DNA from: Bacteroidota bacterium
GTDB lineage: Bacteria > Bacteroidota > Bacteroidia > Cytophagales > Cyclobacteriaceae
Direction: 5' to 3'
DNA length: 64,000 nucleotides
NCBI GenBank assembly: GCA_018266055.1
Contig: JAFDYT010000004.1
Coordinates: 112,893-176,892, forward strand
A program made the translations under genes and the position numbers. Below, piece by piece: positions 4,335 through 40,837 of this stretch. Every line of letters begins with the position of its first letter. Within the stretch, counting starts at the first letter, position 1. The notes under the pieces were generated by a model, which saw only the letters and a list, made by a program, of their open reading frames with translations, was not told the DNA's origin and searched no databases.

Positions 4335-4775
4335 TTAATTGTTTTGAGCACCTTCATCGATCCACTTTTTAATGAGCCCAATTTGCAAGGGCGAAAGAGG
4401 CATTGCGGGAGGCATATTTTTACCATCCGCGCTTTTCCACTGTAGCATCTCTACAAGTTCACTACCCTCGGAATCGCCCGGAACGATTCCTTTCCCATCG
4501 TCCAATAGAGAACTGAAGGCAACCTCCTTTCGCAAATCGGGGTTTACATTGCCGGGATTGTGACATCCGGCACATTGCCCGCTTAGAATTGGTTGAATGT
4601 CCAAGGCAAAAGAAACATTGTCTTTTACCGGTACTGATAGCTCGGGCGTTATTTTGTCATTGTCACACGCAGTGAGTAAAAAGCCTAAAGCCAGTGCTGA
4701 AGGCAAAATGATTTTGGTTGACGGTTTCATTTGTTTTGTATTTAGATTTATAAATCGTTTTATCGTTGTGTCCAT
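4335..4775 (-). CDS. Lipoprotein with a single c-type haem motif (cytochrome c domain)
   Basis: 146 aa. CAGCH haem-binding motif (SGQCAGCHNPG). Lipobox LLTAC. The likelier start is the internal MKPSTKIILPS at 4730. Confidence 0.7.
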   Translation of the reverse strand: MDTTIKRFINLNTKQMKPSTKIILPSALALGFLLTACDNDKITPELSVPVKDNVSFALDIQPILSGQCAGCHNPGNVNPDLRKEVAFSSLLDDGKGIVPGDSEGSELVEMLQWKSADGKNMPPAMPLSPLQIGLIKKWIDEGAQNN

Positions 4776-21335: not shown

Positions 21336-23348
21336 TTAAAACCTCATCCGCTGAATTCTCACCGCATTCAATATTGCCAGCAAAGCTACGCCCACATCGG
21401 CAAACACAGCTTCCCACATGGTGGCCAGGCCACCAGCACCGAGTATTAAGACTGCTGCTTTTACAACAAAGGCAAGTGTAATGTTTTGCCAAACAATGCG
21501 CTTGGTGGTTTTGCCTATGTTGATGGCCATCGGAATCTTTGATGGCCTATCATCTTGGATTACTATATCAGCCGTTTCAATGGTGGCATCGCTGCCAAGC
21601 CCGCCCATCGCTATGCCTGCATCGCTCAATGCCACTACAGGCGCATCGTTTACGCCATCGCCCACAAAGGCAACGCTTTCGCCTCGTGCTTTTATTTCTT
21701 TTACCTTGTTCACTTTGTCTTCGGGCAGTAAGTCGCCAAAGGCATTGTCGATGCTCAGTTCTTTGGCAACAAAATTCACCACGGAACTTTTATCGCCACT
21801 GAGCATGGTTGTCTTCACGCCCAAGCGATGGAGTTGTTCGATGGCCGTTTTTGCATCTTCTTTTATTTGGTCGGCAATGGTGATGTAGCCTGCAAATTTT
21901 TTATCGTAGGCCATCGCGATGATGGTGTAAACGATGCTGCTTACATCTACATCGTGCTTGATGCCGAACTTGCTCATGAGTTTGAAATTGCCCACCAGCA
22001 ATTCTTTTCCGTTCACTGCGGCTTTCAATCCATGTCCCGCTATTTCTTCCACGCCCGTCAATTCGATTTTGGAATTTACATCGCCCACATATTGGTGAAT
22101 AGCGGTGGCAACGGGATGTGTGCTTTTGCTTTCCAATGCGTTGACCAATTCCAATATTTCCTTTTCATCAAATCCAGACTGAATATTTACTTGTTGCACT
22201 TTAAAAACTCCCTCGGTGAGTGTGCCTGTTTTGTCCATCACCACATTTTTGATGGATGCCACGATGTCCAAATAATTACTGCCTTTGAAGAGGATGCCGT
22301 TGCGCGAAGAAGCACCAATGCCACCAAAGTAGCCGAGTGGTATCGAAATCACCAATGCGCAGGGACAAGAAATAACTAAGAACACGAGCGAGCGGTAGAG
22401 CCAGTCTCGGAACTGATAATCTGAAACAAAGAAATAAGGCAACACACAAATCAGCAATGCAAGCACCACCACCACAGGTGTATAGTACTTGGCAAAAGTG
22501 CGTATGAACAATTCTGTTTTTGCTTTTTGGGCAGTTGCATTCTGAACCAAATCTAAAATTTTTGAAAGCTTGCTATCGGTATAGGCCGTTGTGACTTTCA
22601 CCAACGAAACGGTGTTGAGGTTAATCATGCCTGCCAATACGGTCTCCTCTTTTTGTTTTGTATCAGGTTTGCTTTCGCCCGTGAGCGCGGCCGTATTGAA
22701 AGAGGCCGAATCGGATAGCAACACACCATCCAACGCTAATTTCTCGCCCGGCTTTAATTGAATGATATTTCCGATAGAAACAGATTCCGCTTTCACGGTG
22801 CGTACGTTGCCTTCTTCCACAACAGTAACTTCATCAGGCCGCTGGTCGAGCAATGCTTTGATGTTCCCTTTGGCTCTCTTTACAGCTAATGTTTGAAAAA
22901 CTTCTCCGATCGCATAGAACAACATCACGGCCACACCCTCAGGGTATTCGCCTATGGAAAATGCACCGATGGTGGCAATGCTCATCAATAAAAATTCGGT
23001 GAAGAATTCTTTTTTGACAATTGCCTTCCATGCTTCTTTTATTACAGGAAAGCCTACGGGCAGATAGGCGAGCAGATACCACGCCAATCTAACCCAGCCC
23101 TTAAAAAAAGAAGGCTGCCAATAATTATCGAAAGCAATCGCGATAAGCAGCAACGCCAAACTTATCAATGATGGCGTAAACATTTGAAACGTGCTTTGCG
23201 CTTTTGGAGAATGGTCGTGGCCGTCCGATTCGGTGTGCCTATCGGTTTTGCCTGAAGTTTTGGCATTAATTTTTTCCTCCAACGAACAACAAGTCATGTG
23301 GCCGTGTTCATCGTAGGTGTGCTTGTGGTGGGGGTCTGTGCTAGTCAT
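21336..23348 (-). CDS. P1B-type heavy-metal ATPase, Zn/Cd/Pb-like (His-rich N-terminus, no classical HMA domain)
   Basis: 670 aa. Motifs SCPCALVISIP, DKTGTLT and GDGVNDAP. The last TM carries FADVGVALL, the Asp-type motif seen in ZntA-like pumps. The N-terminus reads HHKHTYDEHGHMTCC...DGHDH. Confidence 0.85.
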   Translation of the reverse strand: MTSTDPHHKHTYDEHGHMTCCSLEEKINAKTSGKTDRHTESDGHDHSPKAQSTFQMFTPSLISLALLLIAIAFDNYWQPSFFKGWVRLAWYLLAYLPVGFPVIKEAWKAIVKKEFFTEFLLMSIATIGAFSIGEYPEGVAVMLFYAIGEVFQTLAVKRAKGNIKALLDQRPDEVTVVEEGNVRTVKAESVSIGNIIQLKPGEKLALDGVLLSDSASFNTAALTGESKPDTKQKEETVLAGMINLNTVSLVKVTTAYTDSKLSKILDLVQNATAQKAKTELFIRTFAKYYTPVVVVLALLICVLPYFFVSDYQFRDWLYRSLVFLVISCPCALVISIPLGYFGGIGASSRNGILFKGSNYLDIVASIKNVVMDKTGTLTEGVFKVQQVNIQSGFDEKEILELVNALESKSTHPVATAIHQYVGDVNSKIELTGVEEIAGHGLKAAVNGKELLVGNFKLMSKFGIKHDVDVSSIVYTIIAMAYDKKFAGYITIADQIKEDAKTAIEQLHRLGVKTTMLSGDKSSVVNFVAKELSIDNAFGDLLPEDKVNKVKEIKARGESVAFVGDGVNDAPVVALSDAGIAMGGLGSDATIETADIVIQDDRPSKIPMAINIGKTTKRIVWQNITLAFVVKAAVLILGAGGLATMWEAVFADVGVALLAILNAVRIQRMRF

Positions 23349-23368: not shown

Positions 23369-24574
23369 TTACTCTTCTTCTTCCGAGTTTTTCATTTTAG
23401 AGAGAATGGCATACGCATTCTTCACTACCACCTGATTGTCTGCGTTAAAATCAGGCGGAAGGATTACTTCAGTATAGCCCATTTCACTGTTTCCTACTTG
23501 TATTTCCATCATTGTAAAATGAAACTCGCTGGCGTGTTGCTCTTTGCTTTCGTCTTTTAATGCGCTGTGGGGCTGCTCTTTCAATTGGTAGAAAATGTAT
23601 TTTTTCCCTTGATAGTCAATGATGGCTTTATCCGGCAAGGCTGGCACTTCGATGCCGCCCGTTTCAACAACAGCCTTCAGGTACATGCCCGGCAGCAAGT
23701 TGGTATCTTCTCTATCAATGTGGCAGTGAACACGTATGGTGCGATCAAGTCCGATTTGGCGACCCAACAAATACACGGTGGCCATTCTTTCCTTGGTTTC
23801 GTTGGCAAGAGTGAACCGAACTTTTTGTCCGATCTTCAGTTTGGGCACATCTTTCTCGAATACAGTAAGTTCAGCGTGCAAGTGCTCGGTATCAACAATT
23901 TCGAACAGGATGTCACTGGGGTTTACAAATTTGCCGATGTTGACGTTCACCTGCGTGACGTAACCATTGATGGGCGAGTAGAGTTGGATGGTGCTTGAAA
24001 TTTTCCCCTCATTTAAGGAGGAGAGGTTAATGTTTATCATTTTCAATTTTTCGGCAAGGCCGTTAGCTTTTGCTTGCCAACTTGCGTACGTTGTTTTGGC
24101 TTGTTGCAATGTCTTTTGGGCATTCACGTTTTCTTTCGCCAAATCTAGTTGCCGATCGTAATCCACTTTAGCAAAGTCAGATTGATTTTTAGCTTCTATG
24201 TAATCTTGTTGCATTTGTATGAAATCAAGATTTTCCATAGTTGCAATCGCCTGGCCTACCTTTACTCTTGATCCTTGCAGCAACGGTGTACTTTTTAAAA
24301 ATCCTCCCAGCGGAACGGAAATGCTGACCATCTGCTGAGGGGGCACATCCAGTTTGCCATTTACTTTTACCGTGCCGCTGATTTGTTTGCTTTCAATTTT
24401 GCCCAATTCAATGCCGGCCGTTTTGTATTGAGCTTCGGTGAACTCCACGGTATTCGCTTCTTCGCTGTGATGCTCTTCGGTGGTCGCCTCTTTTGCGCTC
24501 TTGCTTCCGCACGACATAGTTAAAGCTACTCCAATAAAAATGGAGAGTATAGAAATTGATTTAGATGTAGTCAT
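23369..24574 (-). CDS. czcB: RND efflux periplasmic adaptor (CzcB-like)
   Basis: 401 aa. Lipobox LTMSC, N-terminal EEHHSEE, and adaptor hairpin and barrel regions. Confidence 0.8.
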   Translation of the reverse strand: MTTSKSISILSIFIGVALTMSCGSKSAKEATTEEHHSEEANTVEFTEAQYKTAGIELGKIESKQISGTVKVNGKLDVPPQQMVSISVPLGGFLKSTPLLQGSRVKVGQAIATMENLDFIQMQQDYIEAKNQSDFAKVDYDRQLDLAKENVNAQKTLQQAKTTYASWQAKANGLAEKLKMININLSSLNEGKISSTIQLYSPINGYVTQVNVNIGKFVNPSDILFEIVDTEHLHAELTVFEKDVPKLKIGQKVRFTLANETKERMATVYLLGRQIGLDRTIRVHCHIDREDTNLLPGMYLKAVVETGGIEVPALPDKAIIDYQGKKYIFYQLKEQPHSALKDESKEQHASEFHFTMMEIQVGNSEMGYTEVILPPDFNADNQVVVKNAYAILSKMKNSEEEE

Positions 24575-24582
24575 GGTCGATC

Positions 24583-25809
24583 TTATTTAGTGCCTGATAA
24601 AAATTGAATGTAAATAATGCTTTGGTTGTAGTCGTTTAAGGTTTGTAAATAACCTTCCTTAATGGCAATGGCATTTCGTACCCCCAGCAGATATACGGCA
24701 AAGTCAATTTCGCCCTCGCGAAAGGCAACTTGCGATTGCTTCAGTATCAGTTCTGCATTTGGTAAAGCGGAAGTGCGGTAATACTCCAAACTGTTTCGAT
24801 TCTTTCCATACAGTTGCGCAGCCTGTTGTGATTGTCCCTGTATGATTTTCTGCTGATTGGCGTAATTACTTTCCGCAGCCTGACGGGTAAAGGCTGCGGC
24901 CTTCACTCTGCCCTGATACGGAACAAACCACAGTGGAATGGAGATACCTGCGAAGAACCCGGAGAACCTGGTGTTGTCGTTAGCCACTGTTCCGTTCTCA
25001 ACGTTGATCGTATTGATCAGTGTTTGATTGAAATACCCGATCATTAAATCGGGGGCGAACTTTGCCGTTTCCACTTTCTTCAGGCTTTTCGCTACGTCTA
25101 CTTGCTGCCGCACATACGACAGAAAAGGGTTTGTGAGTATCGTTGTGTCTTGCGATGCATCGAATGGAATCTCGGTTAGCTCATCTTCCGAAATGTCCGG
25201 AAGTTGCTCACTGTTGAGTAGCGTCTGCAATTGCGTACGCAAAATGGTGGCCGTTGATTCATTTTGGCGAAGTTGATTTCTCACCTCATTACGTTGTGTT
25301 TCAGCGGTGGTTTGCTCCAATAGTTTGCTTTCACCCGTCTTGTAGCGTAATGAAGCCGACTTTAAGAACCCTTCGTAAATGCTGTCTTGCTGAAGCAAGA
25401 GTTGATGTCGCGCTTTTACAAAGGCAAGTTGATAGTAAACTTGCTTTACCTGATAAACCAAGTCGTTTTCAGTAAATGCTTTTTTCAATTCAGATGAAGC
25501 AAGCAACGATCGGTTCAGGGAGGCTTGGCTGCCTAAAATGGTAAGAGGAATACTTTGTGTAATGGAAATGTTGTTATCATTTTTAGCAAAGCTATTATAC
25601 TGCCCATACTGCAACGACACATTCGTCTTGGGCAGATCAAATCCTGTTTTCTTCAATTGCCTTTGCGATTCCACTTCATAAGCTACCGCCCTGATGCCCG
25701 CGTTATTTTTTAAAGCGACATCAATGGCTTGTTGAACTGTTAACTTGGTGGACTGGCCAAGCCCCGCAAAAGAGAAACTAGTAATGGTGATGATGATTAA
25801 TATTCTCAT
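24583..25809 (-). CDS. czcC: TolC-family outer-membrane efflux factor (CzcC-like)
   Basis: 408 aa. Signal peptide and a two-fold repeated coiled-coil/beta pattern. It overlaps the pump gene by 4 nt. Confidence 0.8.
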   Translation of the reverse strand: MRILIIITITSFSFAGLGQSTKLTVQQAIDVALKNNAGIRAVAYEVESQRQLKKTGFDLPKTNVSLQYGQYNSFAKNDNNISITQSIPLTILGSQASLNRSLLASSELKKAFTENDLVYQVKQVYYQLAFVKARHQLLLQQDSIYEGFLKSASLRYKTGESKLLEQTTAETQRNEVRNQLRQNESTATILRTQLQTLLNSEQLPDISEDELTEIPFDASQDTTILTNPFLSYVRQQVDVAKSLKKVETAKFAPDLMIGYFNQTLINTINVENGTVANDNTRFSGFFAGISIPLWFVPYQGRVKAAAFTRQAAESNYANQQKIIQGQSQQAAQLYGKNRNSLEYYRTSALPNAELILKQSQVAFREGEIDFAVYLLGVRNAIAIKEGYLQTLNDYNQSIIYIQFLSGTK

Positions 25810-28800
25810 ATCGAAGGCGTATTTATTTTCTTAGAACCAATTTTTTCAAAATAGATAAACAGGCAAGGCAGTACGATCAGGGTAAGAAGTGTTGAGCTGA
25901 TCAACCCTCCGATCACCACGGTGGCCAAGGGTTTTTGCACTTCAGCTCCTGCGCTGGTCGCCAATGCCATCGGCAAAAAACCAAGCGAGGCAACCGCGGC
26001 CGTCATTAACACGGGGCGAAGGCGCACGGAAGTTGCCTTTAATATGATGTCATGCAAATCGGTTATGCCATCTTTTTTCAAGCGGTTGAACTCAGCGATG
26101 AGTACAATTCCGTTCAACACGGCTACCCCGAAAAGTGCGATAAAGCCTATGCCTGCAGAAATACTGAACGGCATGCCACGAAAAAGCAGCGCGAAGATTC
26201 CCCCAATCGCTGACATAGGAATAGCGGTGAGGATAAGGACGGATTGCTTTAGCGAACCAAACGTGAAGAACAGCAGCATTAAAATAAGCAACAGCGCAAC
26301 GGGTACTGCTATCGACAACCGTGCCTTTGCTTCTTTCAGGTTTTCAAATTGCCCACCGTAGGTCGGAAAATACCCTGGCGGAAAATCAACCTGGTTTGTA
26401 ATTTTCTGCTGCAACTCTTCAACAATGCTCTCCACATCGCGTCCTCGCACATTAAAACCTACAATTATTCTTCGCTTTGCATCTTCACGTTGAATCTGAT
26501 TCGGCCCGATTTTGAATTCGACATCGGCTAACTGTTTCAAGGGAATCTGCTCGCCCTTCGGGGAAGAAATGAATAAGTTGCGCACATCTTCAATACTTTG
26601 GCGGCTTTGTGAACTGAGACGAACGGTGAGGTCATATCTTCTTTCGCCTTCGAACACCAACCCGGCTGCTTGCCCTGCAAAGGCTGTATTAATAACCTGG
26701 TTAATATCAGCGATGTTCAGACCATACTTGGCTACCTCATCGCGGTTTATAGTGATTACGATTTGCGGCAAGCCGGTAACTTTCTCTACATATAGGTCGC
26801 GCGCACCCGCTACACTTCCTGCAATTTTTCCAATCCGTTCTGATAGATCGGTAAGGACATTAAGGTCTTCGCCAAAAATTTTAATTGCAACATCTTGTCG
26901 CACGCCTGTCATCAGCTCATTGAATCGCATTTGAATGGGCTGTTGGAATCCAAACGTTACCCCAGGAATTTCTTCTAATGCCTCTCCCATTTTATCGGCA
27001 AGTTCTACTCTGTCAGCGGCTTTTTTCCATTCACTTTTATCTTTTAGGATTACCATCATATCGCAGGCCTCAATAGGCATAGGGTCGGTAGGAATTTCGG
27101 ATGAACCAATTTTGCCGACTACTTCTTTTACCTCGTCAGGAAACTCACGCAACAAAATTTGTGCACCCTTGGAGGCAGTCTCTATAGTATACGACAAACT
27201 ACTTCCGGTAAGTGCTCTGGTTTCTACGGCAAAGTTCCCTTCTTCCAATGTGGGAAGAAATTCGCCCCCCATTCTCATAAAGAAAATGAGGCTTACCAAG
27301 AAGAGGATAACAGATGAAATGACTACAACAAACTTGTGCTTTAGTGCTCTATTGATTATTGGTTCATACACTCGATGAAAAAAGTCCATCATTCTATCAG
27401 AGAAATTGCGTCTATGCTCAGTGTTCTTGCTCAGAAAAAGAGCCGACATCATCGGCACATAAGTAAGTGACAGAAGGAATGCGCCAAGGATAGCAAAGCT
27501 AACGGTCTGGGCCATCGGCTTAAACATTTTACCCTCAATGCCAACCAGCGCAAGAATGGGCAGGTAAACGATCAGAATGATAATCTCACCAAAAGCTGCC
27601 GATGTCCTTATTTTAGAAGCTGATTGGTAAACTTCCAAATCCATTTCTTCTTTCGTCAAGCGGATGGCTCCTCGTAAGCTTAGGTGATGCATCGTAGCTT
27701 CTACAATAATTACGGCCCCATCCACAATCAAACCAAAATCAATAGCACCCAAACTCATCAAGTTGCCGGATACACCAAAGACATGCATGAGAGATACCGC
27801 AAACAGCATGGCCAATGGAATGACGGAAGACACTATCAAGCCCGCTCGCAGATTGCCAAGGAATAAAACCAGAACGAAAATTACAATTAGAGCACCCTCA
27901 ATTAAATTCTTTTCAACAGTGCCCACAGCGCGGTTCACCAATGCGCTCCGGTCAAGAAAGGCTTCAATGGTTACACCTTCGGGCAATGTTTTTTTGATTT
28001 GCTCCATCTTTTGTTTTACGCGATTCACAACAGCGTTGGAGTTTGCACCTTTCAGCATTAAGGCGGTAGCACCTACTACTTCACCTTCTTTGTTATAGGT
28101 CATGGCTCCATAGCGGTTGGCAAACCCAAAGTGCACCTCCGCCACATTGCGTATAAGAACGGGGATACCGGCTGCCGTATTTTTAACTACAATCTTTCCG
28201 ATGTCATCTACGGAATTGATAAGCCCTTCGCTGCGGATAAACCAGGCGTTTGGGTTCCTATCTATGTAAGCGCCCCCTGTATTTTGATTGTTCTTTTCGA
28301 GTGCAGTGAAAATGTCTGCGATGCCCAGATCATAGCTGCGAAGTTTATCGGGGTCAAGCGCTATTTCATATTGCTTTAAAAGGCCCCCAAAGCTTGCGAC
28401 ATCAGCTACACCTGGTGTGCCCAGCAACTGCCTACGCACGATCCAATCTTGGATGCTACGAAGTTCCATCGCGCTGAACTTGTCCTCATAACCTTTCTTT
28501 GGTCGAATGATGTATTGATAAATCTCGCCAAGCCCTGTACTTATTGGAGCCAGTTCGGGAGAGCCCATGCCCGGTGGGATTTGCTTTGCTGCTACCGTCA
28601 ATCTTTCGCTGACTTGCTGACGCGCCCAGTAAACATCAATGTTGTCATGAAAAACAATTGTGACAACTGAAAGGCCGAACCTCGAAAAGCTCCGCATCTC
28701 TTTAATATCTGAAATGGTTGACATTGTTAGCTCTACGGGAAAGGTTACGAGCCGCTCAATATCCAGCGCGGATTGAGAGGGAGCTATCGTGATGATCTGT

Positions 28801-28940
28801 ACCTGGTTGTTGGTGATGTCAGGCACGGCATCAATGGGGAGTTGGGTTATCGAATAACTTCCCCAGGCAATCAGGCCCAGCGTAAACAGGCCGATGATCA
28901 GTTTATTTTGTATTGAGTAATGAATGATTTTATCTAACAT
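25806..28940 (-). CDS. czcA: CzcA/CusA-family heavy-metal RND efflux pump (intact)
   Basis: 1044 aa with 12 TM helices. MLDKIIHYSIQNKLIIGLF start and TM4 motif GAIDFGLIVDGAVIIVE. Confidence 0.9.
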   Translation of the reverse strand: MLDKIIHYSIQNKLIIGLFTLGLIAWGSYSITQLPIDAVPDITNNQVQIITIAPSQSALDIERLVTFPVELTMSTISDIKEMRSFSRFGLSVVTIVFHDNIDVYWARQQVSERLTVAAKQIPPGMGSPELAPISTGLGEIYQYIIRPKKGYEDKFSAMELRSIQDWIVRRQLLGTPGVADVASFGGLLKQYEIALDPDKLRSYDLGIADIFTALEKNNQNTGGAYIDRNPNAWFIRSEGLINSVDDIGKIVVKNTAAGIPVLIRNVAEVHFGFANRYGAMTYNKEGEVVGATALMLKGANSNAVVNRVKQKMEQIKKTLPEGVTIEAFLDRSALVNRAVGTVEKNLIEGALIVIFVLVLFLGNLRAGLIVSSVIPLAMLFAVSLMHVFGVSGNLMSLGAIDFGLIVDGAVIIVEATMHHLSLRGAIRLTKEEMDLEVYQSASKIRTSAAFGEIIILIVYLPILALVGIEGKMFKPMAQTVSFAILGAFLLSLTYVPMMSALFLSKNTEHRRNFSDRMMDFFHRVYEPIINRALKHKFVVVISSVILFLVSLIFFMRMGGEFLPTLEEGNFAVETRALTGSSLSYTIETASKGAQILLREFPDEVKEVVGKIGSSEIPTDPMPIEACDMMVILKDKSEWKKAADRVELADKMGEALEEIPGVTFGFQQPIQMRFNELMTGVRQDVAIKIFGEDLNVLTDLSERIGKIAGSVAGARDLYVEKVTGLPQIVITINRDEVAKYGLNIADINQVINTAFAGQAAGLVFEGERRYDLTVRLSSQSRQSIEDVRNLFISSPKGEQIPLKQLADVEFKIGPNQIQREDAKRRIIVGFNVRGRDVESIVEELQQKITNQVDFPPGYFPTYGGQFENLKEAKARLSIAVPVALLLILMLLFFTFGSLKQSVLILTAIPMSAIGGIFALLFRGMPFSISAGIGFIALFGVAVLNGIVLIAEFNRLKKDGITDLHDIILKATSVRLRPVLMTAAVASLGFLPMALATSAGAEVQKPLATVVIGGLISSTLLTLIVLPCLFIYFEKIGSKKINTPSI

Positions 28941-29179
28941 ATAGGTCAGTGATTAAAATTTAGATTTGGAAGGACTGTTGCTATGATGAACAAGAATAAA
29001 AGAAGCAAGCCCAAGAGTATCCACAAAGCGTAATGGATAATCACTGTGAGAATACTTTTCTTTTGTTGCTTTTTCCGCTTTCTCCGATTGTTCATAATAA
29101 GCCCTAACCATCTTAACCAAGGCTACCGTTGCCTCGGGAAGAAATTTATCGTCATGGAGACGATTGATACTGTAGGAGC

Positions 29180-29500
29180 TTAAATTTTGGGCGGTTGCCA
29201 GATATGGCTATAATCAGACAATACCTGTTTTTCGATGTAGGGTATTGTTTCTTTGGTGTTATGGATAACACCGGCAAAGTCTATAGAAGACGCGTAAGAA
29301 ATTCTAATGTGCGTGGCGCAACATGCGCAAATGCAGAAAGGTGTACATAAATCTTCTTCGTTAGCGGAGTGTGGATGTTGTGATGCGTTTGCAATCTGTT
29401 CTCCTATTCGTTTTTCATCGGTACACGTATTTGCATCGCTGCATGGATAGACCGAGAGTGCTGTTACATACAGTGCCAATATGAAATAGAGTACTTTCAC
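29180..29500 (-). CDS. Small Cys-rich membrane peptide (DUF6660-like) upstream of czcA
   Basis: I chose GTG 29500 (VKVLYFILALYVTALSVYPCSD), because the track start at 29611 overlaps the upstream gene by 59 nt. Motifs are PCSDANTCTD, HPHS and DLCTPFCICACC. Confidence 0.55.
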   Translation of the reverse strand: MKVLYFILALYVTALSVYPCSDANTCTDEKRIGEQIANASQHPHSANEEDLCTPFCICACCATHIRISYASSIDFAGVIHNTKETIPYIEKQVLSDYSHIWQPPKI

Positions 29501-29552
29501 GGTGTAAAGATAAGTTAAAAAATGATGCAATGAAGTTGCAACAAAAATGAGT

Positions 29553-30779
29553 TTAAAAATAACTCGAAAACCCAAACTGAAAGCCAGCTGTTTTTGAGGG
29601 TGGGTTGCCAAGGATATCCGTTATCCAATTGTACCGATAGTTAAGCCTTAGCACCGTGAGGGGAGTCGGCCTCCAGCTAATGCCGGGCACAATGGAAACA
29701 AAATCTTCGCTCATGTTCCCGCTCGTCTCTTTAAAAGTACCCACGTTCCAATCTACATACTCGAAACGGCAGACAACATTGACCACCGACTTATTGAAGT
29801 TAAAAATATTTGTTCTGATAACAGGCTGAACAACATCAAGAAATCCACCCGATTGTTTGTTCCCATATTGCTGCGTGTAGGTATCGGGCACATCTACATT
29901 TACAAAAGCCCATTCACCAACAAGGTATGTTTTTAAAATCGGTAGCTCTGTGTTGAAATCCAACGCCCACACATCCACTCTTCTTTTTTTATCCAATGTA
30001 AAACCGTCCATTTGAAATTTGTTGTACACTCCGCCCATGTACGAAATACCCAGTTCGCCCACCTTCTTATTGCGCAAAGCGATTTTGGCTGTGATGAGTG
30101 GCTCGCCATTAAAACTTTCTTCAAATCGGTCACGGTTCAGTTTGGTGGCGGGCAAATACGTTTTGTTTTGTGCGTTGGAAATGATTTGGTCGTCAAAGCC
30201 ATTGGTGAGATAAAGTTCGTAGGCGTAGGCCCAATTCTTACTATACTTTTTTCCATAGATGCCAAAGCCCACGTTACTCCACGTGGCGGGCAACAGTTGT
30301 GTGGCCGATGTGGGGCGGTCTATAAATTCCCATTTGGGGCCATCGTGATTTTGATTGAATGCTCCGATGGGGTTCATCACTACTCCACCTCTGAAGTTTA
30401 GCAATGGATGAAATTCAAAATCAATGGAAGCAAATTCGATATTGATTTCTTTGGTGCCACCTTCAAACTCAATCTCCGACAAGAATTTTATCCTTCTCGA
30501 TATGCCCGAAGCGACAAACAACGTAAGCCGCTTCATCTGGAATTGATGGCCTTCTGTCAAACCATCAGTGCCCAAGTGCTGCCAGTTGGCCTCCACATAC
30601 CCACCCAAGGCAACGGGTGTTTTACCCACCGAAAGAAACGGACGGTTGTAAACGGCATCCATGTTCAACAGCAGTTTTGAAGTGTCTTTGTTCACCCTCC
30701 TAAACAACGTTGAATCAACCTGCGACCATAGCGGTGTGATGACAAATACAAACAGCAATAATGTCAATAAACCTTTCAT
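29553..30779 (-). CDS. Outer-membrane beta-barrel (porin-like) protein
   Basis: 408 aa. Signal peptide MKGLLTLLLFVFVITPLWSQ and terminal GFQFGFSSYF. Its start overlaps the Rieske gene stop (ATGA). Confidence 0.65.
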   Translation of the reverse strand: MKGLLTLLLFVFVITPLWSQVDSTLFRRVNKDTSKLLLNMDAVYNRPFLSVGKTPVALGGYVEANWQHLGTDGLTEGHQFQMKRLTLFVASGISRRIKFLSEIEFEGGTKEINIEFASIDFEFHPLLNFRGGVVMNPIGAFNQNHDGPKWEFIDRPTSATQLLPATWSNVGFGIYGKKYSKNWAYAYELYLTNGFDDQIISNAQNKTYLPATKLNRDRFEESFNGEPLITAKIALRNKKVGELGISYMGGVYNKFQMDGFTLDKKRRVDVWALDFNTELPILKTYLVGEWAFVNVDVPDTYTQQYGNKQSGGFLDVVQPVIRTNIFNFNKSVVNVVCRFEYVDWNVGTFKETSGNMSEDFVSIVPGISWRPTPLTVLRLNYRYNWITDILGNPPSKTAGFQFGFSSYF

Positions 30780-31240
30780 GATAGTCGTAAGTCAATTATT
30801 ATCTTGTCACCCAAAATGGAGGTAGGAAATGAGCGTAGGTTTTTTTCGGCTGGCCCGTGATTAACGATTCCTTTATTGGTGAATTCGCTACCGTGGCTGG
30901 GGCATTGTAAATGGTCGCCCACAGCCTGCAACTCGGCACCTTGGTGCGAACACTTCATCCAAAGTGCACTGTATTCATTTTCTGAAATGCGGTAGAGATA
31001 AATGGGGAATTCAAGTTTGTCGTTCTGCACGATGATGTATTGGCGCATTTCTGTTTTCCCTTTCTTCACAAATGCAAATTCTGATATCGCAACTTCTAAA
31101 CCATTGGAGGCGATTGTTCCGTCAACATAGTGTGTAGCCTGGCAACTTTCAAGCATCATTGGCAGGGCGGTAGCACCTACGCAAAAAATGCAACCTTGCC
31201 GTAAAAATTTTTTTCTATCCATACTATCACAAACTTTCAA
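30776..31240 (-). CDS. Rieske [2Fe-2S] domain protein with a Tat-like leader
   Basis: Rieske ligands CSHQG...CPSHGSEF. The leader is DRKKFLRQGCIFCVGATAL. The start may be 31222. Confidence 0.75.
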   Translation of the reverse strand: MKVCDSMDRKKFLRQGCIFCVGATALPMMLESCQATHYVDGTIASNGLEVAISEFAFVKKGKTEMRQYIIVQNDKLEFPIYLYRISENEYSALWMKCSHQGAELQAVGDHLQCPSHGSEFTNKGIVNHGPAEKNLRSFPTSILGDKIIIDLRLS

Positions 31241-32423
31241 GAAAGCTGATTAGTTTTTTCCTTTCGTTCGCTGGCAACGATTCAAATGACTCTTTGCTTT
31301 TCGTGCCTTCTCCACCGTGCAGGCGAATGGCCTCTTCTATACTCTTTGCACGACCGTCATGCAATAGAAAATACTCACCGCCTTGCGAGTTTTTAGAAAG
31401 CCCCAAGCCCCATAAGGGAGGCGTTCTCCATTCAGATGTTTTTGCTGAACCTTCTGTATAACCATCATCCAAACCACTGCCCATATCATGCAGCAATAAA
31501 TCCGTATATGGATAGAATACTTTATTGCTCAATGATTGGATAGTAGTGCTTGCTGTTTTCATTTCAGGGCGATGACAGCCTCCACACCCAAGATTTAAGA
31601 ATAACTGTTTACCTGAAAGAACATCGCTATCCTCTTGTCGCTGAATGGGGGCTTTAAGCGTTTTCAAATAAAAAACCACGTCTTGAATTTCTTGGTTGGA
31701 AATCTCAGGGTCAATTTCGACTCCTGAATAAGTATCGGTTGGTTCAAAGGTGGATGTGATACCGATGTCTTGGTTGTATGCTTGTGCCGTTTGTTGCAAG
31801 AGATTGTAGGTAGCTGCCTTCTTGCCAAACCTGCCGATGTACTTTCCGTTTTGCACAACGCTTCCATCGCGTGGCATTACATATGCTTTCAACTCAACCC
31901 AATTAGGCACACCGCTAATGCCATCGCCATTTAAATCATCAAGGTCAGAGAACAATAAAATATCACTGTCGCTTACGGCATCTAAAAAACCCAGCCCCGT
32001 ATTGGCGGGCGGTGTGAATTGAGAGAAGGTTGCATCTGCTGGAATTTGTTCGGGAGTAAACCCTGGAATGGAGCGATGCTGCAATTGGGGCCCACCTAAT
32101 TTCAAGAACTGATTCCCTGTTTCGTTGATTTGACCGAACCGCGTCAGTGTTGTAAACGGATGACCTTTGCCATCGCCCGGATGTCAGCTACCGCAGGACG
32201 TGGAAACAAACAACGGCCCAAGGCCATTTGAAGAGTTGAATACTTGGTCGTTGAATGATACATCGCCTCTTAAGAATTGAATGTTTTCGGCTGCCGATAA
32301 GTCGGCAACGGGGCCATCTAATAGTGCTGAGTCATCCAAGGCAACGGGTTCAAATGTTTCACATGATAGTACGCAAAACAAAGCGACAATGCACAGAAAT
32401 AGTATGGGGCTAATCTTCTTCAT
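31227..32423 (-). pseudogene. DUF1111-type di-haem c lipoprotein (putative peroxidase or thiol oxidoreductase) interrupted by one in-frame TGA
   Basis: Track ORFs 32184..32423 and 31227..32105 share a frame (81 nt apart) with only TGA 32184-32186 between them. The translation reads GLGPLFVSTSCGS-TGA-HPGDGKGHP. A second motif, CGGCH, is intact. The lipobox is VLSC. Confidence 0.7.
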
Positions 32424-32451
32424 TCAAATTTAAGATTGCCAAAATTAAAAA

Positions 32452-32467
32452 GTTAGACTATTCTAAC
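32452..32467. promoter_or_regulatory. Inverted repeat GTTAGA-N4-TCTAAC, candidate DtxR/MntR-family box
   Basis: It lies in the 100-bp divergent spacer between the di-haem gene and the DtxR-like gene. The core resembles the TTAG...CTAA half-sites of DtxR-family operators. Confidence 0.4.
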
Positions 32468-32523
32468 AAATTAATTTGATGAATATACTTCGCAATCATT
32501 ATTTTTGAACTAAAACTGAGGGC

Positions 32524-33174
32524 ATGGACTCACTCACGGAAGAAAACTACATTAAATCCATTTATGCGTTGTCACTGGCTACGGGGGAGGTCTTTGTTTC
32601 GGAATTGGCTAAAAAGCTGAACATAAAACAGCCTTCGGTGAACAGCATGATGAAACGATTGGCAACTAAAAAGGTAGTTGCCTATGCCCCTTATAAAGGT
32701 ATCCGCTTGACGGAAAAGGGAAAAAAAGAGGCGTTGTCAATCATCAGAAGGCATCGGTTGGCTGAGTTGTTCTTGGTGAAAGTAATGGAACTCGGCTGGG
32801 AAGAGGTGCACGACATAGCCGAGCAACTGGAACATGTTGACTCCAAGCGTTTTTATAGCCGCATGGACGAGATGCTTAACTTTCCCAAGTTTGACCCGCA
32901 TGGAGAGCCTATACCAGATAGCAACGGAAAAATTTACACACAAAAGCGTACTGCGCTCAGCGACCTTGTAGAAGGATTAACCGCTACCATTGCAGCGGTT
33001 GGTGAGGACGAAAAATCATTCCTCGACCACTTGAACGCCAAAGGATTGCAAATTGGAGATACTGTGACTCTTAAGAAAAGAGAACTGTTCGATGGTTCCG
33101 TTACCTTGCAGCACAAGTCGAAAAAAGAAATACTGCTTACGCATCAAGTGGCGGAAAGGATTTGGGTGGAATGA
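32524..33174 (+). CDS. DtxR/MntR-family metal-dependent repressor with a C-terminal FeoA/SH3-like domain
   Basis: 216 aa. EENYIKSIYAL, HTH VSELAKKLNIKQPSVNSMMKRL, and metal-site region RRHRLAELFL...EEVHDIAEQLEH. Confidence 0.8.
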   Translation: MDSLTEENYIKSIYALSLATGEVFVSELAKKLNIKQPSVNSMMKRLATKKVVAYAPYKGIRLTEKGKKEALSIIRRHRLAELFLVKVMELGWEEVHDIAEQLEHVDSKRFYSRMDEMLNFPKFDPHGEPIPDSNGKIYTQKRTALSDLVEGLTATIAAVGEDEKSFLDHLNAKGLQIGDTVTLKKRELFDGSVTLQHKSKKEILLTHQVAERIWVE

Positions 33175-33195
33175 GATGACCACCCATAAATTACA

Positions 33196-33402
33196 CTAGG
33201 CTTTTTCTGCTTTGTATCCGGCCTTCTTCACCGCTTCAACAATCTTCTCTTCGCTTACCTCATTGACAACCGTGAGCACTTTTGAGGGATTGTTGATATC
33301 CACTTCCCAATTGTCTTCGCCCACGGCTTCGTTTAAGAAAGGTGTTACTTTGGCTATACAGCCAGCACACTTAATGTTGGTATTGAATTTTACTGCTTCC
33401 AT
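33196..33402 (-). CDS. copZ: HMA-domain metallochaperone (CopZ-like)
   Basis: 68 aa with a CAGC metal-binding motif in a ferredoxin-like beta-alpha-beta-beta-alpha-beta pattern. Confidence 0.8.
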   Translation of the reverse strand: MEAVKFNTNIKCAGCIAKVTPFLNEAVGEDNWEVDINNPSKVLTVVNEVSEEKIVEAVKKAGYKAEKA

Positions 33403-33507
33403 ACAATTTTAGTTTGAAGTTTCTATACTGGAATGATATACAAATTAATGTGGTTACACGTGGAAGATAATTACACAATAGCCACAAAGTTTTACATGAT
33501 TTCCGGT

Positions 33508-35745
33508 CTATATTTTTGAGGCCCTAAGCCGTAAGCTATTCCCGACAACACTCACCGAACTCAACGCCATGGCTGCACCGGCAATCATCGGGTCGAGCAA
33601 AAAACCATTTACAGGATAGAGTACACCTGCGGCCAACGGAATGCCAATCACATTATATATAAACGCCCAGAACAAGTTCTGTCTGATACCTCTGACCGTT
33701 TTTCTGGAAAGGTTAAATGCTTTGGGCAGCAACTGAAGATCGGACGTAATCAAAGTTATCTTAGCTACGTCTATCGCTATGTCCGAACCCTTACCCATTG
33801 CCACACTAACATCGGCTTGCGCCAACGCATGAGAGTCGTTGATGCCATCGCCCACCATCGCTACTACTTTGCTTTGCTCTTGCAATTCTTTCACGAACGA
33901 AGCCTTGCCGCTGGGTAGTACTTCTGCCTGGTAGTGCTTTAAATTCAATTGCGATGCAACGGCCTTAGCCGTTTGTTCATTGTCGCCCGTGAGCATATAC
34001 ACTTCAATGCCTTTGTCTTGAAGCGCAGCAATAGCAGCTTTTGATGTAGCTTTTATTTTATCCGCAATAGAGATAACGGCCAGCACTGTTTTGTCATTGG
34101 TGAAGAAGACAACTGTTTTTGCTTCACTCTGCCAACTTGTTGCCAGTTGCTCGGTAGCATCTGTTAAATTGATGTGATTTTCATGAAGAAGGTTTTTGTT
34201 GCCAATAAAGTAGACAGTATGATCAACTATGGCCCGAACACCACGACCCGTAAGGCTTTCAAAATCGGTCATCGCTACGTTGTTGATGAAGTCTTTCTTC
34301 AACTCATTCACAACAGCCTCTGCTAAGGGATGCTCCGATTTTGATTCCAATGCATAAAGGATGTTCTTCATTTCAGGCAAATCATTTTCTACTTGCCAAC
34401 TCAGATTCGTTACTACGGGCTTGCCTTCGGTGATGGTTCCTGTTTTGTCCAAGATAACCGCATTTACCTTATGCGCCAGTTCAAGACTTTCTGCGTCCTT
34501 AATCAAAATGTTATTTTCAGCACCTTTACCTACACCTACCATGATGGCGGTTGGAGTTGCAAGTCCAAGCGCACATGGACAAGCAATCACAAGCACCGTG
34601 ACAGAAGTAAGTAGTGCATGAGTAAACGCGTTATCACCGCCAAACAACATCCATACGGCAAATGTGAGGATGGCAATACCAATTACAACCGGCACGAAAA
34701 CACCTGCGATTTTATCTACCAACTTTTGAACAGGCGCTTTGCTGCCTTGCGCCTGCTGCACCATCTTAATGATTTGTGCCAAAATGGTATCTCCTCCAAC
34801 CTTCAGTGCTTCAAACTGAAAGCTGCCTTTTTGGTTTACTGTACCCGCAAATACTTTCTCACCAGCTATTTTTTCCACAGGAACTGGTTCCCCTGAAATC
34901 ATACTTTCATCTACATACGATGCACCATTTCTCACTATGCCATCCACGGGGATTTTCTCTCCGGGCTTTACCACGATAACGTTACCAACCTTTACTGATG
35001 CTATTGGTATTTCCTGTTCCACTTCATCAACCATCACACGCACCGTTTTGGGCTGCAAGCCCATCAGCTTTTTGATGGCCGATGAGGTGCTGGATTTAGC
35101 CCGCTCTTCCAACAACTTCCCTAACGATATAAAAGCTATCACCACGGCTGCCGCTTCGAAGTAAACGTGCGCGTGCAAACCACGCTGGTGCCAGAATTCA
35201 GGAGAGAACGTATTGAATGTGCTAAAGATAAAAGCGATGCCTGTTGAAAGTGCTACCAGCGTATCCATATTCGCTTTACCGTGTCTGGCCTGCTTCCAGG
35301 CATTCACATAAAAGTTTCTGCCAAACCAGAAAACCACTGGTGCGGCAAGCAACATAGAGATATAATTGCCATAAGGCATATCCATAAAAAACATACCGAT
35401 AACTACTACAGGCACGGATAAGATAGAAGACCAAAGTGTGCGGCTCTTAACTTCCTTATAATGCTTGCGTTGTGCTTCTTCCTGAACGGCTTGCGGGTCT
35501 TCCACATTCACCACCAAATCATAACCGATAGAGCGAACGGTATTTTGAAGGTCAGTGGGTTGAGAAATGGAACTATCATACTCTACCCAAGCAGATTGAT
35601 TGGCGAAATTCACACCTGCATCTTTCACACCAGTAGCTTTCTTAAGAATGGACTCCACGCTTACGGCACAGGCTGCACATGTCATTTCCAATACCGGAAA
35701 AGTTTCGCGTTTAACTGCTGGAGTTCTGTTTTTGGACGTTGTCAA
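33508..35745 (-). CDS. copA: Cu(I)-translocating P1B-1 ATPase
   Basis: 745 aa. HMA domain [11 protein letters not shown]. Motifs [38 protein letters not shown] and [15 protein letters not shown]. Confidence 0.9.
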
Positions 35746-35884
35746 TGTTCTACTCTTTTGAACTACAAAAATCGATTACATCCCATCAGAAAGTATTATA
35801 CTATACCCGAAAAGAATTATAGAATTTCTGAACTTCTCAAGTAAAAATTTATGCTTTTGACATTCTTCCAAGTATTTATAAGAT

Positions 35885-36112
35885 ATGAATACTATTGAAA
35901 TGAAGAGGTTGCTTAGGGAAGCCTTAAGTCCTCATTTGAAGAATCTTAGAATAATCAAAGTGAAAGTGTCTCACAAAGAATTTGCTGATTTGATCGAGGA
36001 GTTCAAACACCGCCTTATGGCTAATCCAGAGGAATACTTGAAAGGGATTGAAAACACGTTCGATGTTAAACTTATGATCGAGAGCATCATTGATGAAATC
36101 GTAGAGAATTAG
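35885..36112 (+). CDS. Hypothetical small protein
   Basis: 75 aa ORF, helical and acidic, with no recognisable motif. Confidence 0.35.
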   Translation: MNTIEMKRLLREALSPHLKNLRIIKVKVSHKEFADLIEEFKHRLMANPEEYLKGIENTFDVKLMIESIIDEIVEN

Positions 36113-36120
36113 GAGCAGAG

Positions 36121-36696: not shown

Positions 36697-36745
36697 GTGC
36701 TAATCTACTCAGTACGAAGTGAAAATATTTTATCAAAGATACAAA

Positions 36746-38005
36746 CTATGGTGAAGTTGAAATTTGTTGTAATTGCGAGCCGCCTTGAGCCATTTTCGCC
36801 CTGAGAAGTTCCATATCCTTGCTGATTTTCTTCTGAACAATCTTTCCATAAATCTGAGTAGTTCGAATGTCCGTATGACCCAACAGTTCCATCGTAGTCT
36901 CCATGGGCACATCATTCGTAAGCAGCACAGTGGTAGCAAATGTATGTCGAGCCGTATGGCTGGTAAGGTTCTTTTTGATGCCACATATATCTGCCACCTC
37001 TTTTAAATAACCATTGTAACGTTGGTTGCTGTTCAGTGGCAGCAGTTTGCGATTAGCTTTACAGTAAGGATGATTTTTATATTTATCAATAATCTCAAGA
37101 GGAATGGGCAACAATGGAATATTCTCTGTCGTATCCGTTTTTTGTCTATCCCGGATGATCCATTTGCGGCCATCAATTCCAACAGCTATATGATCAGGTC
37201 CCAAGGCTTCGGCATCGGAGTAAGAGTAACCTGTATAGCAAACAAATATGTAACAGTCACGCACCTCTTCCAATCGCGCAATGGGCATTGATTTTTCATA
37301 CATCAACTCCAACTCCTGTTCATCAAGAAACTCCCGCTTGGTCCGTTTGTAGGTGCACTTAAAATTTGTAAACTTATTGGAAGGCACATACTCCAGGGTC
37401 ACTGCATACTCCATTACTTGCTTCAAGTCCTTTGCGTATTTCATCGCGGTATTATGACCGATTTTTTCGGCCGTCCGTAAATACTGCTGAAACTCGGTAA
37501 TGAAGTTGATCTTTGCTTCACTGACTTCAATGTCTGACTTTTTTAGTTTGAGTTTAAGAAACGAAACGCATTTGCCTTTTAATATTTCAAATCGATTATA
37601 GCGTGTGGCTTTGATATCGCCTACTTCCACTTTGTCGTCCATGTGTTCCATGAATTGGTCAAACACCTGAAGAAAAGTCTTCTGTTTAGGTTTGATTCCT
37701 TTATAAGATTTTTTTACCTCTTCAGGGGTAACATACTCTTGGGTAGCAGCCAATACATTATAGTGCTTCGTGATTTCTGCTTCAACCAACACAAGATGCT
37801 TGTTGATCTCTTTGGCACTTGGGCATTCCTTTGCAACACAATTGTTTTCTGCATCCCAATACTCAAGCATCACTTGTTTCATCGCGGAACACTCCGCGAT
37901 TTTTCCATCGATGGTAATGCGCGCCCAGATAGGTACGAGCCCTTGGCTGTTTACTTTTCTTTTGTTCAGCCAAAAGCGAACGGTGAATTTTTGATTGAGG
38001 TTCAT
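36746..38005 (-). CDS. int: Tyrosine site-specific recombinase/integrase (host-like GC)
   Basis: 419 aa. The N-terminal arm-type domain is FWLNKRKVNSQGLVPIWARITIDG. The catalytic C-terminus is HTARHTFATTVLL...LLGHTDIRTTQIYGKIV. Confidence 0.85.
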   Translation of the reverse strand: MNLNQKFTVRFWLNKRKVNSQGLVPIWARITIDGKIAECSAMKQVMLEYWDAENNCVAKECPSAKEINKHLVLVEAEITKHYNVLAATQEYVTPEEVKKSYKGIKPKQKTFLQVFDQFMEHMDDKVEVGDIKATRYNRFEILKGKCVSFLKLKLKKSDIEVSEAKINFITEFQQYLRTAEKIGHNTAMKYAKDLKQVMEYAVTLEYVPSNKFTNFKCTYKRTKREFLDEQELELMYEKSMPIARLEEVRDCYIFVCYTGYSYSDAEALGPDHIAVGIDGRKWIIRDRQKTDTTENIPLLPIPLEIIDKYKNHPYCKANRKLLPLNSNQRYNGYLKEVADICGIKKNLTSHTARHTFATTVLLTNDVPMETTMELLGHTDIRTTQIYGKIVQKKISKDMELLRAKMAQGGSQLQQISTSP

Positions 38006-40251: not shown

Positions 40252-40274
40252 TATAGAGTGAAACCGGTGCAAGT

Positions 40275-40298
40275 AAGGGCTCCATTTGAGCCCTTTTT
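40275..40298 (+). terminator. Rho-independent terminator
   Basis: Stem AAGGGCTC/GAGCCCTT, loop CATTT, followed by a T-run. Confidence 0.65.
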
Positions 40299-40817: not shown

Positions 40818-40837
40818 AGATTTCGCAACGAAAAAAG

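Follow-up and report, generated by a model that had tools for sequence, protein, structure and literature searches.

A haem-Rieske-porin cassette beside a czc efflux operon in a Bacteroidota metal island: two neighbouring and probably separately switched units

In a 64,000-nucleotide stretch of a Cyclobacteriaceae genome (contig JAFDYT010000004.1, positions 112,893 to 176,892; hereafter the window), a run of genes on the minus strand extends from 32423 down to 21336 and encodes, in order, a di-haem lipoprotein of the DHOR family, a Rieske protein, a 408-aa porin, a DUF6660 protein, a 49-aa open reading frame (ORF), the pump CzcA, an outer-membrane efflux factor (OEP), a membrane-fusion adaptor (MFP) and a P1B-type ATPase. 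The explanation of this run that we favour, and consider probable as a whole, is that it comprises two neighbouring, separately switched units, with an uptake-side role for the first, so that uptake and efflux modules of one metal-homeostasis neighbourhood would lie side by side. Unit 1 would consist of DHOR, Rieske protein and porin (hereafter the trio), and Unit 2 of DUF6660, the 49-aa peptide, CzcA, OEP, MFP and the ZntA-like ATPase. The trio is a widespread, unstudied and uncharacterised cassette.

Organisation and conservation of the two units

The genes and sequence elements concerned, in window coordinates, are:

32524..33174, plus strand: DtxR/MntR-family regulator, 216 aa, divergent from the trio (Pfam PF02742, 6.2e-29; PF01325; PF04023)
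32453..32466, no strand: palindrome TTAGA-N4-TCTAA, a candidate operator between the regulator gene and DHOR
32440..32447, minus strand: TAATTTTG, a match to the -7 box TAnnTTTG, 5 nt past the palindrome and 16 nt before the DHOR ATG
31227..32423, minus strand: 398-codon gene for a di-haem lipoprotein of the DHOR family (PF06537/DUF1111), interrupted at codon 80 by an in-frame TGA
32184..32186, minus strand: the premature TGA, as read from the sequence, at the second Cys of the first CxxCH (C-G-S-TGA-H)
30776..31222, minus strand: Rieske [2Fe-2S] lipoprotein, 148 aa, with a Tat-type signal (PF00355, 3.6e-12)
29553..30779, minus strand: outer-membrane 16-strand porin of an unnamed family, 408 aa (AF2 and Foldseek)
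29526..29542, minus strand: inverted repeat GTTGCAAC-N4-TTGCA, the only copy of its pattern in the window, with a T-run and a -7-like box after it
29180..29500, minus strand: DUF6660 Cys-rich membrane-anchored protein, 106 aa, GTG start (PF20365, 1.3e-10)
28946..29095, minus strand: 49-aa ORF with a basic N-terminus, one transmembrane helix and a C-terminal ...NLNFNH (ORF reading)
25806..28940, minus strand: CzcA/CusA-family HME-RND pump (TIGR00914, 1177.9 bits against a cut-off of 701)
24583..25809, minus strand: OEP, TolC-like (PF02321, 2e-26, 93 bits against 22)
23369..24574, minus strand: RND MFP, CzcB-like (PF16576, 3e-28; TIGR01730, 124 bits against 94.9)
21336..23348, minus strand: P1B-type ATPase with a His-rich N-terminus, CPC and D-x-G-x7-N (TIGR01512, 482 bits against 313)

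The initial annotation had described these genes as one co-directional run with partly overlapping stop and start codons. Their common orientation was borne out by the ORFs and by Pfam and NCBIfam matches, and the span is real, but conserved motifs split the run into two units. Stop and start codons overlap as ATGA at the Rieske/porin and czcA/OEP junctions. DHOR and the Rieske gene do not overlap, since the Rieske start supported by homologues is the ATG at 31222 (MDRKKF...) and not the TTG at 31240, which places the two genes 4 nt apart. The gap between porin and DUF6660 is 52 nt, and that between DUF6660 and czcA, which houses the 49-aa ORF, is 239 nt. No riboswitch or other Rfam family was found in the window, nor any at E<=1 within 28800-33600.

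A scan of one genome per species returned 346 porin relatives, and all locus counts given here come from the best 80 of the 346, onto which the window proteins were mapped with tblastn. The palindrome between the regulator gene and DHOR, which reads TTAGAATAGTCTAA in the window (32466..32453), is present in the form TTAG-N6-CTAA at a fixed position in all 48 divergent regulator-DHOR intergenic regions (47 loci and the window). Of 72 loci, 64 have it in the 200 nt preceding DHOR, including some with no adjacent regulator, and in six of the eight loci without it a regulator paralog is found co-directionally upstream. A -7 box, for which we take the Bacteroidetes consensus to be TAnnTTTG, also follows the palindrome in many of the aligned intergenic regions, and a palindrome placed over a promoter in this way would fit repression.

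The same palindrome was found between porin and czcA in none of 25 loci, and its sole other occurrence in the window is at 54330. The gap between porin and DUF6660 holds a TAnnTTTG box, in strict form in 18 of 26 gaps and in relaxed form in seven more. Because this -7 box is conserved and the palindrome is absent from the interval, the motifs point to a promoter belonging to DUF6660-czc itself. An inverted repeat, TGCAAY-N3-5-TTGCA, is found in the same gap (strict in 12 of 26, relaxed in six more) and could be a weak terminator of the trio, an operator or promoter of the czc unit, or both. The repeat pattern has six matches in the genome, only one of which, that in the window, adjoins czc; a czcA paralog on contig C18 has a different upstream gene and neither DUF6660 nor the repeat, and is uninformative on the role of the latter. 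DUF6660 directly precedes czcA in 25 loci, and for annotation the czc operon is best drawn from DUF6660 onward. At the place of the 49-aa ORF, related loci have small transmembrane ORFs with His-bearing tails (e.g., ...RHIILHHF in L046; read by eye).

Pump, adaptor and outer-membrane factor lie together in one operon, as in CzcCBA systems. The ATPase carries CPC and D-x-G-x7-N, presumably the signature of the Zn/Cd/Pb type, and exceeds the cut-off of the Cd family (TIGR01512) while remaining below that of the ZntA equivalog (NF033775, 420 bits against 1240). Unit 2 would be an ordinary Zn/Cd/Co efflux operon under its own promoter. Two other lines of evidence on transcription were set aside. 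A sigma-70 promoter and terminator scan, which is blind to Bacteroidetes promoters, gave counts equal to those of shuffles (22 against 21.5 and 14 against 14.2), and contig breaks of public run X6 near gene borders come from a single study of uncertain kind (RNA by guess) and were not used as transcript evidence.

DHOR, Rieske and porin genes occur in that order in all 71 loci with at least 2 kb of upstream sequence, the other nine being too short, and among the 67 loci with at least 2.7 kb upstream, a DtxR-like gene is divergent in 44, co-directional in six and absent in 17. Among the 46 loci whose flanks both extend for at least 9 kb, 26 carry czc or a Zn-type ATPase no more than 10 kb from the trio, in three architectures, and 20 carry neither at that distance. 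Cultured carriers include Pseudochryseolinea flava (L082), in which czc follows the trio, and Chryseolinea serpens DSM 24574 (L030), which has no czc nearby. Efflux genes lie downstream in 20 of the 46, mostly as DUF6660-czcA-OEP-MFP-ATPase starting 60-125 nt past the porin; in L025 the ZntA-type ATPase stands alone, 237 nt past the porin, and in two loci with shorter flanks (L033 and L050) such an ATPase begins 15 and 29 nt past it. The remaining six, mainly from Chitinophagaceae, have them upstream, on the far side of a convergent regulator gene. A tree of the porins from the loci and the window required at least 12 changes of linkage state, five to six of them forced by well-supported branches, and with the three states taken together none of 200 shuffles gave a number as low. 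Linkage of the trio to efflux genes is recurrent, labile and modular.

Since the synteny recurs elsewhere, the neighbourhood is not a product of chance. The initial annotation had proposed a link between periplasmic electron transfer, an outer-membrane channel and metal efflux beyond chance adjacency, to be checked by a genome-context survey and to be given up if synteny was absent elsewhere and the trio was regulated apart from czcA. The survey found the trio-czc neighbourhood in other genomes, so that the adjacency stands; the regulatory half, with a separate candidate operator for the trio, argues against a single machine of electron transfer, channel and efflux. The modules also have different histories, since the window trio is closest to those of L020 and L021 (92-94%) and the window czcA to that of L037 (96%, against 83% in L020). 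L021 has no czc within 10 kb, and in L020 the porin is separated from DUF6660-czc by inserted genes for a TonB-dependent receptor and a PepSY_TM protein (L020:11575-15119). In czc-free loci the trio is often found beside TonB receptors (L022, L028, L035, L085). A PNP_UDP_1 (phosphorylase superfamily) gene recurs as a neighbour of the module, beside the ATPase in the window (20518-21315, plus strand) and directly upstream of the trio in two czc-free loci (L045:7448-8209 and L061:7395-8084).

Candidate regulon and role of the trio

The divergent regulator has helix-turn-helix, dimerisation/metal and FeoA/SH3-like domains, and its best NCBIfam match is the Thermus-type MntR (NF047407), at 153 bits against a cut-off of 350. 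It carries the pattern E-x-x-E-H, with Glu at the position of DtxR Cys102 and Asn at that of DtxR Met10, residues that we take to have ligand roles. The exact palindrome TTAGA-N4-TCTAA occurs three times in the 4.79-Mb genome, compared with ∼7.6 expected from base composition. Apart from the trio copy, one lies 25 nt before a second DtxR-family gene that is followed by an Nramp-Usp fusion (PF01566, 4e-134), and one precedes the gene of an 814-aa TonB-dependent receptor, with an M28 peptidase gene after it. The fusion is a 627-aa Nramp with a C-terminal universal-stress-protein domain, encoded after the second DtxR gene at G000:C20:142735-145318 (L101). In a position weight matrix built from the other loci, the trio palindrome was the top match in the genome (24.3 bits), and four of the five matches above 14 bits were intergenic and directly upstream of genes. 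The fifth-ranked site (15.1 bits) directly precedes a nitroreductase-OsmC-Fer4_19/CDGSH operon (G000:C14:453925-454558, L120) and may mark an oxidative-stress arm of the regulon.

Placement in other genomes was similar. The palindrome stands before a DtxR paralog and Nramp in G002, in two copies before a DtxR paralog and a ZnuA-family binding protein in G003, and 4 nt before a TonB receptor in G001. The arrangement expected of MntR, an operator before Mn importers and the regulator's own gene, was found in this genome, G002 and G003. One Fur homologue is present in the genome. We infer that the palindrome marks a metal-starvation regulon of the Mn type, with iron or zinc as other candidates.

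The read-through DHOR protein matched PF06537 at 2.1e-65 (221.5 bits) and its C-terminal piece alone at 1.6e-58 (198.8 bits), the cut-off being 22. Relatives have a lipobox (...VLSC) and two CxxCH motifs, both intact in all 43 aligned sequences; the window copy does not retain both. Conservation is highest in the block that contains the N-terminal haem, and Met314 is conserved at the C-terminal one. Judging from Met314 and conserved Trp residues, one haem would serve electron transfer and the other catalysis, reminiscent of the di-haem peroxidases. Sequence searches of the PDB with DHOR returned only short cytochrome c matches, and no solved CCP or MauG.

The Rieske protein matched PF00355 at 46.5 bits (cut-off 20.3), and C91-x-H93, C107-x-x-H110 and the lipobox Cys27 were invariant in 40 of 40 sequences. 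It is not of the bc1/b6f type, having the motifs CSHQGA and CPSHGS without a disulfide pair and scoring 30 bits against a PetC cut-off of 250. With its Tat signal and full set of cluster ligands it is the obvious candidate for a partner protein. The twin arginine of its Tat signal is RK in the window and in some Chitinophagaceae, and RR in most relatives. A C-x-x-C at residues 11-14, inside the Tat hydrophobic region and upstream of Cys27, was likewise invariant in 40 of 40, which would be odd if the signal were merely cleaved.

The window porin matched no Pfam and no NCBIfam family; among 47 distant members of its family, Porin_O_P (PF07396) matched four and BBP2 matched four. An AF2 model based on a 47-sequence alignment reaching down to 23% identity had 16 strands (pLDDT 90.1, pTM 0.86); it replaced a first model, built from 20 close sequences, that was unusable (pLDDT 50.1). 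Foldseek returned 235 PDB matches at E<=0.001, with porins only in the top ranks (OmpM1, Omp-Pst2, OmpT, OprO/OprP, PorB and OmpF; E 1e-11 to 1e-9) and a maximum TMq of 0.59, to OprP/OprO. Strands 5 and 6 are joined by a long loop (residues 136-167) that includes two short helices, so that the model has the 16 strands and inward loop of a porin, and across the family this loop is the most conserved stretch (P137, G139, N142, H145, D146, P148, R155, P156); E102 and E104 are likewise among the most conserved residues. From the analogy to other porins, the loop is plausibly the constriction. The family comprises 5773 homologues in 1477 clusters at 50% identity and, in a sample of 401 genomes from the phylum, was found in 54 genomes and in 33 of 179 genera. 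For annotation, the 408-aa hypothetical protein can be named a porin.

A three-chain complex prediction of the porin with DHOR and the Rieske protein scored 0.55, compared with 0.00 for the best of three controls, and swapping out DHOR abolished the score; runs agreed in at least 84% of contacts and partner pLDDT was at least 86. The score passes a mark that 116 of 157 solved complexes reach, as do two of 215 mismatches. The model lends weak support to a physical complex of the three proteins.

These observations can be assembled into the mechanism that we favour. The cassette would be repressed through a DtxR/MntR-type operator within a regulon that also includes Nramp or ZnuA-type importers and TonB receptors. 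Since the operator is shared with importers, the cassette would be expressed under scarcity of a divalent metal, Mn(II) being the most likely one, as the repressor leaves the operator. The porin, with His and Asp on its conserved inward loop, would admit the metal species to the periplasm, and the two lipoproteins would form a short electron chain at its inner mouth, running from the Rieske protein to the His/Met haem and on to the catalytic DHOR haem. This chain might keep or make the metal reduced and importable, or remove peroxide that would oxidise it, and MntH-type carriers would take the metal onward. The units adjoin in about half of the loci, probably because both serve one homeostasis problem, and they may also travel together in integrase-bearing metal islands. 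An excess of Zn or Cd starves cells of Mn, as is known from streptococcal work, which would make a Mn-supply cassette useful cargo beside Zn/Cd pumps.

Several observations weigh against this explanation. The separation of the units is argued from conserved motifs, and read-through from the trio into czc could occur, given that the hairpin 3' of the porin is weak (5-bp stem). Presence of a local regulator goes with czc linkage (24 of 31 loci, against two of 15 without a regulator; raw Fisher 6.6e-5), an association that a simple view of two unrelated modules leaves unexplained; in a test for correlated evolution of regulator and czc, only three phylogenetically independent pairs were available and the result was not significant. 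The palindrome shows no genome-wide enrichment over a reversed-pattern control in three other genomes (6 against 6, 6 against 2, and 9 against 9), so that the argument for a regulon is one of placement. Assignment of the metal is indirect, since Nramp and the TonB and PepSY_TM neighbours fit iron as well and the MntR match lies below its cut-off (153 against 350 bits), and the site before the nitroreductase-OsmC operon fits peroxide defence as well as it does uptake. The complex score falls in a weak band, with 18 of the 157 solved complexes and both passing mismatches at 0.60 or below, and nothing in the data points to the reductant of the Rieske protein.

A more specific proposal, which we regard as doubtful, is that the trio forms a physical redox complex of the outer envelope, a minimal porin-cytochrome unit made only under Mn starvation. 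Working at the outer membrane or across it, the complex would feed MntH by reducing oxidised or ligand-bound Mn(III/IV), or Fe(III), and would be kept beside Zn/Cd pumps because Zn/Cd stress starves cells of Mn. If this is true, about one in seven of the Bacteroidota genomes sampled would possess a new class of manganese acquisition by reduction.

It is unlikely that the same cassette and logic serve iron, with IdeR-like repressors and a DHOR acting as in imelysin-DUF1111 clusters. Two papers do link DUF1111 to iron uptake of the imelysin/EfeO type (PMC3143127; bioRxiv 10.1101/072470). TonB receptors and a PepSY_TM protein are found as neighbours. Nramp can also carry Fe(II). However, the Glu and Asn substitutions in the regulator and its best curated match, MntR, speak against iron, a Fur homologue is already present, ZnuA/MntC-type binding proteins belong to the G003 regulon, and no palindrome match was obtained at the canonical imelysin-DHOR cluster that this genome carries.

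We give a similarly low chance to the idea that the trio is a periplasmic peroxide defence, in which DHOR would be a CcpA-like peroxidase fed by the Rieske protein and switched on when Mn-dependent defences fail, the porin being incidental. The Pfam label of DHOR is putative peroxidase, and a candidate operator (15.1 bits) precedes the nitroreductase-OsmC-CDGSH operon, but that site is the weakest of the intergenic matches and the other members of the regulon are transporters. An incidental porin is also difficult to reconcile with its being joined to the pair in 71 of 71 loci and overlapping the Rieske gene by ATGA.

Less likely still is that the trio works as a part of the efflux system, transcribed in one operon with it, and that redox proteins and barrel condition or release metal for CzcCBA and the ATPase. 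Such a role would account for the tight co-directional run, with gaps of 52 and 239 nt, for efflux genes within 10 kb in 26 of 46 loci and an ATPase as close as 15-237 nt past the porin (L025, L033, L050), for an association that recurs over at least 12 linkage changes on the porin tree, and for the co-occurrence of the local regulator with efflux genes. Yet 20 of the 46 loci have no efflux gene within 10 kb, the czc unit is preceded by a -7 box of its own but lacks the palindrome (0 of 25), and CzcCBA comes with a dedicated OEP. In Chitinophagaceae, where the efflux genes lie beyond a convergent regulator, co-transcription is impossible. Importers have the same candidate operator, and from where it lies the metal-bound regulator would be expected to repress, the opposite of the logic that efflux would call for.

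The broken DHOR gene and the surrounding island

The initial annotation had named DHOR a di-haem lipoprotein gene. The family assignment holds, but the open frame is broken by the TGA at codon 80, which splits the gene into a 79-aa N-terminal piece and a 292-aa C-terminal ORF; the genuine stop codon is likewise TGA. At the site of the premature stop, all 71 relatives that cover it have TGT or TGC and none has TGA, while four more loci with a DHOR match did not cover the codon. Contigs of four public runs (X1, X5, X6 and X9) were compared with window positions 29000-33300. Run X1, the possible source, carries the TGA at a depth of 30.5 in an independent contig build, and an assembly error was rejected on this ground. 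Runs X5, X6 and X9, from other studies, have A at 32184 of the plus strand, which gives TGT (Cys), and otherwise show 0-1 differences per piece from the window (e.g., 1 in 1273 bases). Since X1 has TGA and the otherwise near-identical runs have TGT, the stop is real, recent and private to one population. It truncates DHOR ahead of what is presumably its catalytic haem. A T-to-A change has converted the haem-binding Cys80 codon into TGA, freshly disabling Unit 1 in this genome. The Rieske and porin genes are single-copy here, and the sole other DHOR is a paralog of 35% identity.

That the TGA instead encodes selenocysteine, giving a Cys-x-x-Sec-His haem site, has in its favour that the codon falls exactly on a functional Cys and that selD is present (433 bits), but this is almost certainly wrong and was rejected, since selA was not found in the genome (100% complete), nor was selB (the best match, an EF-Tu-like 400-aa frame, scored 190 bits against a cut-off of 242), the best tRNA-Sec candidates were tRNA-Ser and tRNA-Leu by ARAGORN, and no TGA/Cys pairing was seen among 71 homologues, all with TGY at the site, or in three otherwise identical populations, which have TGT. 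The window DHOR should be annotated as a pseudogene, not as a selenoprotein. The occurrence of selD (G000:C18:85151-86071) without selA, selB and tRNA-Sec suggests a use of selenium other than selenocysteine.

Two further features of the window place the units in their surroundings:

36746..38005: integrase, 419 aa, in the same island as both units
4335..4775: mono-haem lipoprotein on the side of the cus operon (Pfam)

The integrase, an HTH_18/AraC regulator, a CopA-type ATPase and an HMA chaperone (33196-38005) are 94-100% conserved in the same order in L020 and L021, and the whole block from the integrase through AraC, CopA, HMA and DtxR genes to the trio is 90-100% conserved in both. The metal island looks mobile. 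GC content rises from ∼0.41-0.46 to 0.49-0.55 past ∼38 kb, after which a second integrase and a phage terminase follow (38418-42256). DNA matching 29000-33300 with 1-2 base differences was present in X5 and X9, labelled as sludge and bioreactor metagenomes, and in X6 from a third study, while the possible source run is labelled hot spring or microbial mat. Near-identical DNA in such unlike habitats implies either a cosmopolitan strain or a recent spread of the island.

The initial annotation had also seen the cus operon near the start of the window as a second instance of the same theme. Its parts are real by Pfam, including, besides the mono-haem lipoprotein, a DUF5777 barrel and a DsrO/DsrP-like pair of 4Fe-4S and NrfD proteins. 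These redox genes lie downstream of the pump, and no MntR-type palindrome is nearby, none being found in the first 32 kb of the window; given this order and this absence, the parallel is loose and the argument from a theme occurring twice is weak support at best. The cus-type RND pump, CusA, is itself divided between two overlapping ORFs at 7127-10334 on the minus strand (429 aa, matching ACR_tran 1-415, and 643 aa, matching 418-1021), which looks like a frameshift; with the DHOR nonsense codon, this makes two broken genes in one island.

Comparison with known systems

The trio resembles the imelysin-DHOR clusters (IrpA/IcmP type; PA4370-4373) in having a DHOR lipoprotein beside an outer-membrane transporter under metal-starvation control. 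Unlike them, it has neither imelysin nor DUF1513, its partners being a Tat-Rieske protein and a 16-strand porin, and no M75 (imelysin) domain was found among the window genes or the scanned neighbours. A canonical cluster of TonB receptor, imelysin and a 460-aa DHOR does exist in this genome, on the same contig (G000:C16:2778-7631, L119), with a beta-propeller gene nearby, which makes an outer-membrane channel next to DHOR a repeated design. The trio DHOR is shorter than the canonical copy (398 against 460 aa) and 35% identical to it, and the DtxR/MntR-type palindrome that would control the trio is absent from the canonical cluster.

For the porin, the closest parallel is MnoP of Bradyrhizobium japonicum, described as a porin-like, Mn(II)-specific outer-membrane channel co-regulated with Nramp under Mn limitation (PMC6011978). 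The likeness, a porin-like channel co-regulated with an Nramp importer, is one of description. MnoP is not known to have redox partners, in which it differs from the trio porin. Very few routes for Mn through the outer membrane have been described, MnoP being the textbook example. MnoP is credited to Hohle and colleagues (2011), and its regulator is Mur, which does not belong to the DtxR family.

With the di-haem CCP and MauG proteins DHOR shares two c-type haems and a small dedicated redox partner encoded alongside, but it has no sequence-level match to the solved members, and its donor would be a Rieske protein and not a cytochrome or cupredoxin. The trio also differs from porin-cytochrome conduits of the MtrAB/PioAB type, in which a cytochrome of ∼10 haems is threaded through a barrel of at least 20 strands, in having two haem motifs and 16 strands. 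The regulator and its candidate targets are like the MntR, SloR and TroR regulons in the SH3-like domain architecture, in an autoregulated regulator with importer operons (Nramp, ZnuA/TroA-type) and in a palindrome over the promoter, and unlike them in that the palindrome regulon includes a haem-Rieske-porin cassette and TonB receptors. TTAGA-N4-TCTAA also differs from the DtxR/IdeR box. Unit 2 corresponds to known CzcCBA and ZntA/CadA determinants, with pump, adaptor, OEP and a Cd-family P1B ATPase with CPC all above cut-offs, and departs from them in its A-C-B gene order, in the DUF6660 and 49-aa peptide ahead of the pump, and in having no adjacent czcRS or czcD.

Outside subscription journals, which our literature search did not cover, we found nothing on DUF1111 with Rieske proteins, on PF06537, on DUF6660, or on Bacteroidetes combined with MntR, porin, Rieske and peroxidase. 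A role of DUF1111/DHOR proteins in metal uptake has been an open question since their link to imelysins, and, set beside the systems above, the present cassette is a compact, testable version of it, with three genes, a clear operator and cultured carriers. Its optional and recurrent docking to Zn/Cd efflux operons leads to the hypothesis that, in environmental Bacteroidota, resistance to Zn/Cd and the supply of Mn influence each other.

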